Program-made: the position numbers and the translations under genes
The notes under the pieces: generated by a model
What the model saw: only the letters and a program-made list of their open reading frames with translations
What the model was told of the DNA's origin: nothing
Database searches by the model: none
IMG/VR virus record: IMGVR_UViG_2897369580_000001
From: a virus
Taxonomy: Duplodnaviria > Heunggongvirae > Uroviricota > Caudoviricetes
Direction: 5' to 3' (one strand)
Length of the DNA: 42,873 bases
Shown here: positions 25,399 through 30,269 of the stretch, one piece after another
Numbering within the stretch: the first letter of the stretch is position 1
Layout of the letters: each line of letters starts with the position of its first letter

Positions 25399-26004
25399 AT
25401 GCCATCGGATGACGATTTTAACAGCCGTTTCAAACAGGAAGTAGCACGCAGACTGAAGGATTCCCTCAACCTACACCGTCAGTTAGCAGAAGAGGTTGAG
25501 CCGGAGGACGATGAAACTCCGGTTCAGTCTCCTGACGAAGCTTCACCTCAGCCAAAGGTTTCGCACGCCCCCAAAAAAACGGCTGTCCGTATTCGCGGAA
25601 TAGCCAGAAAAAGAGCTGCCGAAGCTCGCAAAATGGCTGTAGCTGCGTCTAGCAAAAGAATTCCAACTGCTACACCCTCTCAACAAGTCACCCGTACTGA
25701 GAGTAAAATCTTGACCGAGTTCACATCTGTGAAACAGGTGAATTCACTTGATACCGAGCATGAGCGCAAACAACTCAACAACAAAGATTTTGAAGCAGAA
25801 ATCGCTCTAAAAAAACGATACGGGAAATGGTTCCTGATTATCCTTGCTTTCCAACTTCTGATAATGAATGGTGTATTTATTGCCGACGGCGCAGGTAAGC
25901 TGGAATTTGAGGATTTAACACTACAGTTGTACATGGGCGGTACTTTGACAGAGGTATTCGGCCTCGTGCTGGTCGTGACAAAATACCTTTTTAAACGCAA
26001 GTAA
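25399..26004 (+). CDS. Membrane protein with charged N-terminal region and two C-terminal TM helices (putative effector)
   Basis: 201 aa; starts 9 bp after peptidase stop; C-terminal hydrophobic helices; last 72 bp duplicated at 29355..29426. Confidence 0.65.
   Translation: MPSDDDFNSRFKQEVARRLKDSLNLHRQLAEEVEPEDDETPVQSPDEASPQPKVSHAPKKTAVRIRGIARKRAAEARKMAVAASSKRIPTATPSQQVTRTESKILTEFTSVKQVNSLDTEHERKQLNNKDFEAEIALKKRYGKWFLIILAFQLLIMNGVFIADGAGKLEFEDLTLQLYMGGTLTEVFGLVLVVTKYLFKRK
25933..26004 (+). repeat. Direct repeat copy 1 (3' end of membrane-protein gene)
   Basis: 72 bp, about 90% identical to 29355..29426; encodes MGGTLTEVFGLVLVVTKYLFKRK*. Confidence 0.9.
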
Positions 26005-26466: not shown

Positions 26467-27165
26467 TTATATTTTTCCATATTTTTTTCCGTCAAATCGA
26501 ATCATGCCAGGATCAAGAAAATTAATTAAATCGATTAACGCGTGCTGTATTCTGATTAGCCTTTCTTTATAAATTCCGATATCTCTTGTCATATTTATCA
26601 CTTCATTGTTTAAATCTAAAAAAAATGGCTCATTGATAAAGCAATTTTCCTTTGTGAAACTGCCGTAACCTATGCAATCAAATCCAGTATCTGTTGATAT
26701 CAGCATCTTTTCTGCAATAGCTCTCTGCTCTCCTATGAAAAACATAAAATACTGACCAAAGACGTCTGTTTGGATTAATGAGTTAATATTGTTCTGTAAT
26801 CTAATAAACTCCCTCATTTTTTTATTTTTTTCTAGGCTAAGGTATTGAATGTCTATGCGGGCAGCTTCTGTCCATGCAAAAAACTGGGAAAAAAGAAAAA
26901 CAGTATTGTTGATAACATAATCTTGTTGGCGCTTATTCCCATTATGATAAAACTCTTCAATGAACCCCAATTCTAATATATTATAAATACGGCTTTGTAA
27001 GTCTGAAGCTGAGCGAATTAACGGTTCAATATAGTACTGATGTTTTCTCCTTACATCCAGTGATTCATTGAGCTTGTTTATTCTATTCTGATTATAAGTA
27101 GATATAGCAATAGAGATTATAGCTATTGCACCACTAATAAAGCTTGAAATTAATGCCGTACCCAT
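26467..27165 (-). CDS. AT-rich membrane-anchored protein of unknown function (defense/exclusion candidate)
   Basis: 232 aa; N-terminal TM helix ALISSFISGAIAIISIAISTY; Asn/Ile/Lys-rich; sits in visibly AT-rich cassette. Confidence 0.6.
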   Translation of the reverse strand: MGTALISSFISGAIAIISIAISTYNQNRINKLNESLDVRRKHQYYIEPLIRSASDLQSRIYNILELGFIEEFYHNGNKRQQDYVINNTVFLFSQFFAWTEAARIDIQYLSLEKNKKMREFIRLQNNINSLIQTDVFGQYFMFFIGEQRAIAEKMLISTDTGFDCIGYGSFTKENCFINEPFFLDLNNEVINMTRDIGIYKERLIRIQHALIDLINFLDPGMIRFDGKKYGKI

Positions 27166-28352
27166 CTAAAAGTCCTTTGATTCTTGCTTGGTTAACAAAA
27201 TGACATAATTTTATTTAATGCCATAACAACTTAACAATATATCATAATATGATTATTATGGTGTAGCTTGTCGCATCTACGCTCCATTACAAACAGATGT
27301 AAGATATAACCTATATGTTTTAGCCAGCAAATTCGAAAGCATTCAAAGTAGTCTCATCGAACTCTCGAAACCCTATGTCTTCGGGTATAAAATATTTAAA
27401 TCCATTTGCATAATATCGACTCATGTTTATTATATTCTCCCCATTCACCATTAAGATTTGACATTATTTTCAACAATCGGTTATTGCAAGATTGAAATAT
27501 ATTTTTACTTGACACAATATTCCATGTAGCCCAGCGATTCGACTTACCCCCAACTATACGGACAATCTAAATTAAATCGATGATTTTTTGATACATTCTC
27601 CTCTCTCCATTACTTTATGTTTTTGTTCCCCAAAAATACCTTGCTCTCTAAAAAATAATTGTTCTTTAAGTTCAAAATCGAGATCTACATGAGCGTTAGA
27701 TACAAAGCTAATATGTTGAAATGTCTTTCCCCCCCCATAACGGCATTGTTATCTAAACTATGTTACACAAATATAATATTACCCTTTCAACGTAATCCAA
27801 GAATAAGATTAATGCCATTATATATATCATAAATATGATATTTTGTATATTTTTATCATTTAGCCTTGATTGTACTAGGTGTACTCTCAACGAAGTAGGG
27901 AAAGTCTGTTCCTCGCTCACAGCTGCCCTTCAGTAAGCGAAAAAATGCCTACTCGGTGCCATATACAGCCATTGTTATTAACAGCAGGGAATAATTCAAA
28001 ACTGAAATTAAATATCTACCTTTTACAGTAGAAATAGTTCCTCCAGGACACTATCCATTGCCGGGCACAATCACTCGGGGTATAACGATATAAAATATGT
28101 TCATGATAGTGCAGGTTCGTATATTAAGTTCAGCAGCGAAAACATGCCTTACAGGTTTCCGGTTTTGGGAGCGTCGTTACAGGATCCTGCGCATACCGTT
28201 CCCATCTGTTGAATTAAAGGTTTCACAGCCTTTGCCGATATCACCTTTTACCTTACCTGTGATGCGTTCAGTGCTCAGCGTTGTTTACTGTAGCTCTCGG
28301 GACTGATTACAGACCGCGTCTTAAAAACCAATCCTTACTCTAAAGGGAATTC

Positions 28353-29276
28353 ATGAGATTAAAATACTCAGTACTCTTACTCGCCATTGCCCTTACAGGC
28401 TGTGATAACAAAAAAGATGAGATCGGTTGTTCTTCGGAAATAACCCAGTCAGCTCTCATGGATTTATTAAAAAAATCTGCTTATGAAGGACTCTCTGAAC
28501 AGGTCGATAAATACCCTGATGTCACTAATCAGACCAAACGAAGCACACTGGACAAGATCAAACTAGCCATCTCTGAGATCTCCACAACATCAAGTGACAC
28601 GGGCAGCACAATGAAAACTTGTGAAGGGACCGTGACGATGACTCTATCTGCGAACGAGTACGTCCAGCTTTCAGATGCTTACAGAAAGAATTTTAATCGT
28701 AATCTCGATAAGCAAATGGAAAGCCTGTTTTTGGAGAACAACGCAAACGCCTTTTCAAAACGTATCACCTACACCGTGCAGGCGACCGACGATCAGAAAA
28801 ACGTTTTTGTAAAAACCTCTACTGATAATCCGATATCAGTGGGCGCCGCTTTACTGACATCGCTTTCCATTATCACCCCGATCGTTGAGCAGCAGAAAAT
28901 CCAGCAGGCTAAGGATGCCCAACAGAGTCAAATTGAAGCGGAACAACAGGTGCAACTCAGGGCGCAAGAACAGGCTAAGTATGAGGCGGAGAAGCAAATA
29001 GAGAGACAGGCACAACTTCAGCCGCAAAAAGCTGACAACCTTGATCAGTCCCGAATGGCATTTGCGAATGCCGACTCTGATTTGAGTACCGTCTGGAGCA
29101 AGTTAACCCCGGCGAAGAAAAAAGATTTGCTGCCTTCTCAGCGTCAGTGGATCAAAACTAAGGATGCTATGTGCGGTAAAGTTTCAATGCAGGGAACAGA
29201 TGCTGAAGTCAAGAAAATGGTCGACTGCCAGACGCAAATGACCCTTTCAAGAATCGCTTTCCTCAGAAACCAATAA
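28353..29276 (+). CDS. Lipoprotein with C-terminal DUF1311 (LprI-like) domain
   Basis: 307 aa; signal peptide with lipobox LTGC; Gln-rich coiled-coil middle; C-terminal ...QRQWIKTKDAMCG...DCQTQMTLSRIAFLRN two-Cys motif. Confidence 0.6.
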   Translation: MRLKYSVLLLAIALTGCDNKKDEIGCSSEITQSALMDLLKKSAYEGLSEQVDKYPDVTNQTKRSTLDKIKLAISEISTTSSDTGSTMKTCEGTVTMTLSANEYVQLSDAYRKNFNRNLDKQMESLFLENNANAFSKRITYTVQATDDQKNVFVKTSTDNPISVGAALLTSLSIITPIVEQQKIQQAKDAQQSQIEAEQQVQLRAQEQAKYEAEKQIERQAQLQPQKADNLDQSRMAFANADSDLSTVWSKLTPAKKKDLLPSQRQWIKTKDAMCGKVSMQGTDAEVKKMVDCQTQMTLSRIAFLRNQ

Positions 29277-29291
29277 CTGAAGTCTCCTTCA

Positions 29292-29323
29292 AGCTGGCGC
29301 CAGGTGTTAACCTGGTGCCAGCT
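29292..29323 (+). terminator. Terminator-like hairpin after lipoprotein gene
   Basis: AGCTGGCGCCAGG-tgttaa-CCTGGTGCCAGCT, 13-bp stem with 1 mismatch. Confidence 0.45.
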
Positions 29324-29354
29324 TAGTCATCAAGTGCATATGTAACTGTTTTAT

Positions 29355-29426
29355 ATGGGCGGTACTTTGACAGAGGTATTCGGTCTCGTGCTGGTCGTGG
29401 TCAAATACCTTTTTAAGCGCAAATAG
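29355..29426 (+). repeat. Direct repeat copy 2 (orphan 3' gene end; 23-codon ORF)
   Basis: About 90% identical to 25933..26004; preceded by in-frame stop; encodes MGGTLTEVFGLVLVVVKYLFKRK*. Confidence 0.9.
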
Positions 29427-29450
29427 AGTATTTCCGCCCCAAACAACCTG

Positions 29451-30269
29451 TCAAAATGCTGAATTAGCAACGGATATAGCCGACTTTTTCCCCATTACCA
29501 TCAATTTATCCAGTGTCATACTTCGCAGATTGTCGCTGTGGATCACCAGATACCCTGCCCGCTCAGCGATCTCTTTGAAAGCGTCAAAGGTCATCAGATG
29601 TTCGCCTTTGGCAACATGGCGCATCCCGGTCACTTTTCCATTTTTGATAGTGGTGATAAAAGAAAAATCTGGAATGGTTGGGTGATTTTCATCGAGTAGC
29701 AGGCAGTGGATGTATTCAATCGCCTCTAACATTTGCGTCTGTGACAGTTGTTCTATGTGAGAGACGGCGAAGCGTTGATGAATCATGGTGTAGGCATCGG
29801 GATACATCATGCCTTTCTTGCCGACCAGTATATTAACGGCATCACGCAAGGGAGTACGGTCATCGGTAGTTGTACTCCGCCTCTCTGGACGCTGGCTAAA
29901 ATAACAATCTTCCAGCTTTTCGAAAACTTCCCAGGCCTGTTCTGTTTCCAGCATTTTGGCATGGCGAGCTGCGCCGCGTTCTGTCCAGAGAATGAGGGAT
30001 CGGGTATGTTTAGCAACTGACTGACTATCTGTCAGTCTGTTTTTGAAGTCGCGTAATTCATTACCTTCCAGCTTAAAAAAATGCTTTCCTACGACAAATC
30101 TGGCGATGTTGCGCTTGAAGTTTTGCTGGATACCATTTACTTCCGTGCCATACAAACTGGCAAGCAATTCAGTAGTGATGACGGGAAGTTGGTTATGATG
30201 TAGCGGAGAAAGGGATTCCGCAGATATTTGGACTGTCATCGCAGTGGCCTCACTTAGTGTTTTTTTCAT
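29451..30269 (-). CDS. Phage antirepressor-like protein (ORF6N/Ant N-terminal-like domain)
   Basis: 272 aa from ATG at 30269; N-terminal ...LPVITTELLASLYGTEVNGIQQNFKRNIARFVVGKHFFKL... resembles Ant/ORF6N regions. Confidence 0.55.
   Translation of the reverse strand: MKKTLSEATAMTVQISAESLSPLHHNQLPVITTELLASLYGTEVNGIQQNFKRNIARFVVGKHFFKLEGNELRDFKNRLTDSQSVAKHTRSLILWTERGAARHAKMLETEQAWEVFEKLEDCYFSQRPERRSTTTDDRTPLRDAVNILVGKKGMMYPDAYTMIHQRFAVSHIEQLSQTQMLEAIEYIHCLLLDENHPTIPDFSFITTIKNGKVTGMRHVAKGEHLMTFDAFKEIAERAGYLVIHSDNLRSMTLDKLMVMGKKSAISVANSAF

Follow-up and report, generated by a model that had tools for sequence, protein, structure and literature searches.

The name 'lysozyme inhibitor LprI family protein' stands on hundreds of clinical Escherichia coli genomes, yet the domain behind it has no proven role as an inhibitor of lysozyme. 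The gene considered here (28353-29276, + strand) lies on the virus record IMGVR_UViG_2897369580_000001, a stretch of 42,873 nucleotides (nt) that is called the window throughout, and encodes a lipoprotein of 307 residues. The gene is real and already annotated by domain; a preliminary description, made from the letters alone, had likewise named a prophage-borne lipoprotein with a C-terminal DUF1311/LprI domain, and Pfam match, lipobox and prophage context bear this out. New are the relationship to the Salmonella protein ScwA, an unnamed, well-folded N-terminal domain that is common to several hundred lipoproteins, a repeat-bracketed cargo module with an empty-site counterpart, a cassette shared between genera, and CRISPR (clustered regularly interspaced short palindromic repeats) spacers against the gene; the large conserved N-terminal domain, ScwA and the spacers had been overlooked in the first description. 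The protein, a two-domain lipoprotein of the ScwA/DUF1311 kind, may act in the periplasm by binding or modulating cell-wall glycosidases of the lysozyme fold, a reading that we hold tentatively and at somewhat less than an even chance.

Architecture of the lipoprotein

The protein consists of four parts, namely a lipobox signal peptide, an N-terminal domain (N-domain), a Gln-rich helical stalk and a C-terminal DUF1311 domain, which are placed in the window as follows.

28353-29276, + strand: open reading frame (ORF) of the 307-residue lipoprotein, RefSeq WP_001237642.1 'lysozyme inhibitor LprI family protein', PHROG 5094 (function unknown)
28353-28403, + strand: signal peptide with lipobox L-T-G-C (Cys17), as read from the sequence
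28428-28832, + strand: N-terminal alpha/beta domain, residues 26-160 (135 residues), with invariant Cys26 and Cys90 and the motifs TTSxD..S..K.C and Y..Q.TDD.K
28833-29030, + strand: Gln/Glu/Lys/Ala-rich helical stalk, residues 161-226, modelled by AlphaFold2 as a single helix over residues 160-222
29031-29273, + strand: C-terminal DUF1311/LprI three-helix bundle, residues 227-307, with invariant Cys274, Cys292, W248 and Q265-W266

The limits of the ORF and the length of its product were confirmed exactly, and a ribosome-binding site (AAGGGA, 28343-28348) is located 5-10 nt ahead of the ATG. The N-terminus of the protein, MRLKYSVLLLAIALTGC, is a lipoprotein signal peptide that fits the lipobox pattern [LVI][ASTVI][GAS]C; the LTGC lipobox of the preliminary description is thus present, and 105 of 111 close homologues retain a lipobox, as do 71 of the 77 distant family representatives that have a complete N-domain. 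PHROG 5094 was built from an ORF truncated to start at residue 36, consequently the phage-derived gene calls missed signal peptide and lipobox. Judged by these features the protein is a secreted lipoprotein, whose predicted mature N-terminus reads Cys-Asp-Asn and thereby places Asp at position +2, a residue found there in 92 of 105 close homologues. According to the '+2 rule' of Enterobacteriaceae, Asp at this position is a Lol-avoidance signal for retention in the inner membrane, so that inner-membrane retention is predicted for the lipoprotein.

Conservation was read from an alignment of 29 homologues with 43-92% identity, in which the N-domain is the most conserved part of the protein. No Pfam family covers this domain in any of 30 members, and no convincing fold match was found for it in the PDB. 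In the full-length AlphaFold2 model (predicted local distance difference test, pLDDT, 82.8) a single long helix lies between the alpha/beta N-domain and a C-terminal bundle of three helices; modelled alone with distant homologues, the N-domain reached a pLDDT of 93.8 and a predicted template modelling score (pTM) of 0.87. The stalk is rich in indels and spans 53 to 88 residues between fixed motifs among the homologues. It had been described as a Gln-rich coiled coil, of which the Gln-rich part stood (17 Gln in 50 residues, or 34%, within one helix), whereas the coiled coil was rejected because no heptad register places hydrophobic residues at the a/d positions (at most 6 of 19 in every register). 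'Gln-rich (polar) helical stalk' is the accurate term.

A match to the Pfam hidden Markov model PF07007 (LprI, formerly DUF1311) extends over residues 225-304 and scores 30.8 bits against a gathering cut-off of 22. The C-terminal motif of two Cys residues, already noticed in the letters, is formed by Cys274 and Cys292, which are invariant in the 29 homologues and in 28 distant C-terminal domains. The bundle is basic (pI 9.4) and has the helical-bundle fold of PF07007 as seen in PDB entry 3GI7. For the 307-residue protein no NCBIfam model scored above threshold, and PDB sequence searches with the whole protein and with the profile of its C-terminal domain returned nothing significant except a weak match to 3GI7.

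Among 1.84 billion representatives a profile search detected 515 relatives, of which 226 score E<1e-10. The majority have a length of 290-330 residues and match in both the N- and the C-terminal region, and N-domain, stalk and DUF1311 form by far the commonest architecture. In a minority of distant relatives another C-terminal domain follows the N-domain, which looks SH3-, TPR-, cytochrome c- or GspG-like when the sequence tails are judged by eye, without a Pfam scan. Since N-domain and stalk are combined with differing C-terminal domains, they appear to form a platform that is used repeatedly, the C-terminal module presented on it being the part that varies. Furthermore, a closely similar DUF1311 subtype occurs in a separate family (277-300 residues, eight Cys), whose N-terminal part is a different one.

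ScwA and a possible role at the cell wall

ScwA (SL1344_0490, 'cell wall-related regulator A') of Salmonella Typhimurium is the only enterobacterial relative that has been studied; it is periplasmic, DsbA-dependent and disulfide-stabilised with four conserved Cys residues (PMC7933661). It raises the level of MltD, cells that have lost it contain changed amounts of Slt, AmiC and other proteins, and its overproduction leads to cell lysis; sensitivity towards lysozyme/EDTA (ethylenediaminetetraacetate) remains unchanged upon deletion, i.e. no protection from lysozyme was observed (PMC7933661). For the comparison the ScwA sequence was rebuilt, with one residue unknown, from primer-derived fragments and a frameshifted Salmonella allele. 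The result comprises 275 residues with Cys at positions 30, 100, 237 and 259, exactly as published (PMC7933661). Contig scans for scwA primer-derived patterns gave no match, and a synthetic query made of the primer-encoded peptides recovered only ScwA fragments. In a Salmonella sample (Logan assembly of a public sequencing run, nine contigs) a frameshift splits scwA into ORFs of 81 and 170 residues.

Residues 26-169 of the rebuilt ScwA match the N-domain profile of the window protein's family with 38.5 bits and both Cys residues aligned, and its C-terminus matches the profile of the C-terminal domain with 74 bits; in a pairwise BLASTP comparison ScwA and the C-terminal domain of the window protein share 33% identity (E 6e-10). 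As both ScwA domains match the family profiles, ScwA and the window protein belong to one two-domain superfamily, in which ScwA is soluble and has a short stalk, and the window protein has a long stalk and is predicted to be lipidated. The N-domain common to ScwA and several hundred lipoproteins merits the definition of a family and a structural study.

The following course of events may be proposed. Once lipidated, the protein would stay in the inner membrane, anchored in its outer leaflet, owing to Asp at +2, and two disulfides would be formed by DsbA. The helix of about 60 residues (at most ~9 nm if straight) would lift the basic DUF1311 bundle from the membrane toward the peptidoglycan. 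There the bundle could bind a lysozyme-superfamily glycosidase that acts on peptidoglycan, be it one of the cell's own lytic transglycosylases (e.g. MltD, as for ScwA) or a muramidase that comes in from outside. The cleavage of glycan strands would thereby be limited or tuned, and the prophage copy, being expressed in the lysogen, would protect its envelope. We infer this from the architecture, the homology to ScwA in both domains, the ScwA phenotypes, the ties between DUF1311 and lysozyme-fold enzymes, the Asp at +2 and the status of the gene as cargo (see below). With respect to these ties, the thread that seems to run through the DUF1311 reports, heterogeneous as they are, is the involvement of lysozyme-superfamily enzymes that cut the bond between N-acetylmuramic acid and N-acetylglucosamine (MurNAc-GlcNAc). 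The endolysin of the prophage is of the CHAP type and not lysozyme-fold, hence an inhibitor of lysozyme-fold enzymes would not block the phage's own lysis; this is compatible with the proposed role and weak as evidence for it.

Several points weigh against such a modulator. To our knowledge no binding partner or enzyme complex has been shown for any DUF1311 domain. Within about 8 kb of the gene no partner enzyme, effector or type VI secretion system (T6SS) gene was found in E. coli, Citrobacter, Yersinia, Morganella and one further context, and the gene is monocistronic in all six contexts examined. A sigma-70 scan gave no promoter-like site within the conserved ~230 nt upstream (28124-28352), and expression in the lysogen is therefore assumed. 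The +2 residue is not constant across the wider family. Furthermore, the strongly conserved N-domain has no role in the proposed mechanism and may carry the real activity: its combination with varied C-terminal domains speaks for the N-domain, and not DUF1311, as the constant functional core. Finally, the effect of ScwA on MltD concerns the protein level and is not a demonstrated interaction, and ScwA did not protect from lysozyme (PMC7933661).

The last point bears directly on the RefSeq name. A genuine inhibitor of host c-type lysozyme, which would protect the lysogen in an animal host as the name implies, is highly doubtful. PF07007 and the RefSeq name go back to LprI of Mycobacterium tuberculosis (Rv1541c), a lipoprotein inhibitor of lysozyme that combines DUF1311 with an MliC domain (PF09864), and for resistance to lysozyme this MliC domain reportedly suffices, as far as PMC7933661 recounts it. 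In addition, SDE5 of Liberibacter, reported with an LprI domain, lowers the activity of hen lysozyme by 86% in vitro (PMC12744762), and the carriers of the gene are mostly human clinical isolates of the sequence type 131 (ST131) kind. However, the window protein has no MliC/PliC domain, given that PF09864 found no match even at E<=1 and the AlphaFold2 model contains no beta-barrel, and the SGA-type motif, which is reportedly essential in SDE5, is absent from its sequence. The unaltered lysozyme/EDTA sensitivity of the ScwA deletion, an inner-membrane tether as a poor site to intercept lysozyme entering from outside, and the frequent occurrence of homologues in Pantoea and Erwinia, which are associated with plants and soil, argue in the same direction. 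A protection of the envelope against lysozyme, as first implied for the gene, is thus backed by the domain name only, although the inhibition by SDE5 leaves it a small probability. The actual relative is ScwA, a modulator of peptidoglycan hydrolases that is linked to Salmonella virulence.

The gene as prophage cargo

The window region is 100% identical to the chromosomes of many E. coli, mostly ST131-type clinical isolates, in which the integrase of the lambdoid prophage adjoins tRNA-Leu/Cys/Gly-pgsA-uvrC. Besides the integrase the prophage carries tail, head, terminase, holin, endolysin and Q genes, a replication module and a cI/cro region, and the lipoprotein gene is oriented opposite to the flanking phage genes. 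Its surroundings are described by four features.

25923-26003, + strand: left copy of an 81-nt direct repeat, 3' end of a 201-residue ORF (25399-26004)
29345-29425, + strand: right-hand counterpart of this 81-nt repeat (89% identity between the two), left over from the same ORF end, which encodes a C-terminal transmembrane tail
28124-28352, + strand: non-coding upstream region, transferred together with the gene between genera, with 88-90% nt identity to Citrobacter/Yersinia from 28124
29292-29323, + strand: 14-bp G+C-rich hairpin (-32.8 kcal/mol, z -7.0) at the end of the inter-genus cassette

Both repeats bracket a cargo module of 3.4 kb that holds the gene. In E. coli GPEC172 a near-identical prophage displays a repeat-to-repeat junction without the module (single alignment, 99.3%), which may be either the ancestral empty site or the product of a later deletion. 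The absence of the module from this prophage indicates that it is dispensable for the phage, and repeats and junction together reveal a discrete insertion missing from a near-identical phage, as is expected of a moron. Evidently, the gene is a dispensable, separately oriented, moron-like cargo in an accessory hotspot of the prophage. In sister prophages of bovine and swine E. coli the gene is kept at 95-98% nt identity, and the left-hand cargo is replaced by DUF262-domain or other genes, insertion sequence (IS) elements or remnants; conservation with these sister prophages starts at ~27917. In some ST131-type genomes IS1 and ISEc52 insertions occur within 28000-29500 (approximate placement).

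A cassette of 1.2 kb (28124-29322), comprising 230 nt upstream, the ORF and the hairpin, is 88-90% identical at the nt level to loci of Citrobacter and Yersinia rohdei, where the gene stands alone on the chromosome and no phage genes are nearby. The Citrobacter copy is found between the fec operon and a gene for a major facilitator superfamily (MFS) transporter, at the same site in many genomes; small minus-strand ORFs called upstream of it look spurious. A monocistronic homologue of Morganella lies downstream of yfhM (alpha-2-macroglobulin) and pbpC, and in another lineage a monocistronic homologue is located between fdhE and a yejM-like gene. The distance to the yfhM-pbpC pair, which serves periplasmic defence/repair, is 300 nt on the same strand and may or may not matter. 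Evidently, the same cassette moves between the chromosomes of other Enterobacterales. At least 80% of it was detected in 438 of 5,426 complete E. coli genomes, always on the chromosome, and a nt search of 50,697 phage records gave no match. Rfam gave no match in the upstream region 28124-28352. The hairpin starts 16 nt past the stop codon and is not followed by a U-tract, so it is not a canonical intrinsic terminator.

These contexts qualify the idea of a lysogenic-conversion factor that had been put forward for the gene: it is plausible for a dispensable, separately oriented cargo, but as an ordinary chromosomal gene of Citrobacter, Yersinia and Morganella it has a function that is not phage-specific. 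They also bear on an unlikely alternative, according to which the protein is a general envelope protein with its activity in the N-domain (ligand binding or scaffolding), DUF1311 is an accessory, and the prophage copy is a hitch-hiking chromosomal gene without a role for phage or lysogen. Such a protein would agree with an N-domain that is the most conserved part and is paired with several unrelated C-terminal domains, with the stable position at one Citrobacter locus, with the absence from the phage records and with the near-identical GPEC172 prophage that lacks the gene. It is harder to reconcile with a gene that stays intact at 95-100% identity in the prophage lineage of human, bovine and swine E. 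coli while neighbouring cargo is exchanged, with the predominance of the N-domain plus DUF1311 architecture, and with the clear peptidoglycan-related phenotypes of ScwA (PMC7933661).

Further genes of the accessory region were compared with defence families. On the minus strand (26467-27165) a 232-residue protein with an N-terminal transmembrane helix is encoded within a stretch of 31-34% G+C (PHROG 5606, function unknown); it matches a DRT-associated transmembrane protein in PADLOC weakly (22 bits) and may be a defence or abortive-infection cargo gene. The segment 24901-26004 (+) encodes an ImmA/IrrE (Peptidase_M78) protein with a strong CapP-like PADLOC match (87 bits), followed by the 201-residue protein (25399-26004; PHROG 5346, function unknown), which is tail-anchored; both may form a regulatory or defence pair of the same accessory region. 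About 1 kb of AT-rich DNA (27166-28123) contains no credible ORF and several sigma-70-like sites. The neighbouring ORF6N (antirepressor-like) protein (29454-30242, -) matches the PADLOC candidate PDC-S05 with its N-terminal 85-90 residues (~36 bits).

The defence-like neighbours, i.e. the CapP-like ImmA/IrrE protease, the weak match to the DRT-associated protein and the DUF262 gene of a sister prophage, lead to a further alternative, to which we assign a low probability as well: an orphan immunity or exclusion factor against incoming muramidases, either T6SS effectors of competitors or the tail lysozyme/transglycosylase of superinfecting phages, with a logic like that of T4 Spackle. In Pantoea, LprI-domain genes are located downstream of lysozyme-like and pesticin-domain T6SS effectors (PMC9796082; bioRxiv 10.64898/2026.08.01.741415) and occur in orphan immunity arrays; the candidates of Pantoea agglomerans are orphan LprI genes in the hcp island and Psi15 beside the pesticin-domain effector Pse15. 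The CHAP-type endolysin of the prophage would suit such a factor. On the other hand, an effector gene is not nearby in any context examined, PADLOC assigned the 307-residue protein to no defence family at E<=0.01, and the cited work treats LprI-domain proteins as candidate immunity only, not assayed on their own.

That E. coli has met the gene on an invader follows from two CRISPR spacers, whose targets lie inside the ORF.

28353-28387, - strand: protospacer 1, 28353-28384 plus CAT (protospacer-adjacent motif ATG on the minus strand), 32/32 to a type I-E spacer
28826-28860, - strand: protospacer 2, 28826-28857 plus CAT (protospacer-adjacent motif ATG on the minus strand), 32/32 to a type I-E spacer

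The first spacer sits in the iap-cas2 CRISPR array of many E. coli and the second in the ygcE-side array of E. coli 3CM. About 137 complete E. coli genomes match the gene at spacer size only, 119 of them with the first type, and at most six genomes could carry both the gene and a spacer. The invader met by these CRISPR-bearing E. coli was probably this phage lineage. A third spacer, two units away in the array of an ORF-matching spacer, agrees in 27 of 29 positions with the portal gene of the prophage (15227-15255), which suggests that the array records encounters with this phage lineage.

In its most far-reaching form the proposed role would make the protein a prophage-delivered, inner-membrane-tethered blocker of lysozyme-fold muramidases, which provides ST131-type lysogens with orphan immunity to peptidoglycan-cleaving T6SS effectors or excludes superinfecting phages by neutralising their tail lysozyme, the N-domain then having a new fold by which the DUF1311 'warhead' is positioned or regulated. 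This we regard as decidedly unlikely; if true, the spacers against the gene would record past encounters of E. coli with this phage lineage. If the prophage copy alters cell-wall turnover or muramidase resistance, the pandemic ST131 lineage would possess in it a trait of lysogenic conversion. A specialist would find little surprising in what is an ordinary but poorly understood cell-envelope gene.

Comparison with known DUF1311 systems

M. tuberculosis LprI is, like the window protein, a lipoprotein that carries PF07007/DUF1311; it differs in possessing MliC and in lacking N-domain and stalk. PP_0307 of Pseudomonas putida (PDB 3GI7) is a single-domain secreted DUF1311 protein of unknown function with 16% identity to the window protein, for which it provides no functional information. 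The Pantoea candidates, which were compared by description only, are similarly periplasmic proteins with a DUF1311/LprI domain, and they have links to enzymes by which the glycan strands of peptidoglycan are cut. They adjoin effector genes or reside in T6SS islands, whereas the window gene never does so in the contexts seen.

The closest comparison is the one with ScwA, although the overall identity amounts to only ~21-33%. The signal peptide of ScwA is an ordinary one (…SYA|G) and leaves a soluble periplasmic protein, in contrast to the lipobox of the window protein; the interdomain linker of ScwA is short compared to the Gln-rich stalk of ~60 residues, and members of the ScwA family comprise 275-278 residues compared to 307. 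The scwA gene is chromosomal (ybaP-copA), the window copy is located on a prophage. Both genes are monocistronic, horizontally acquired and low in G+C, and all four Cys residues of the two proteins align, C30/C100 of the ScwA N-domain with C26/C90 of the window protein and C237/C259 of the ScwA DUF1311 domain with C274/C292.

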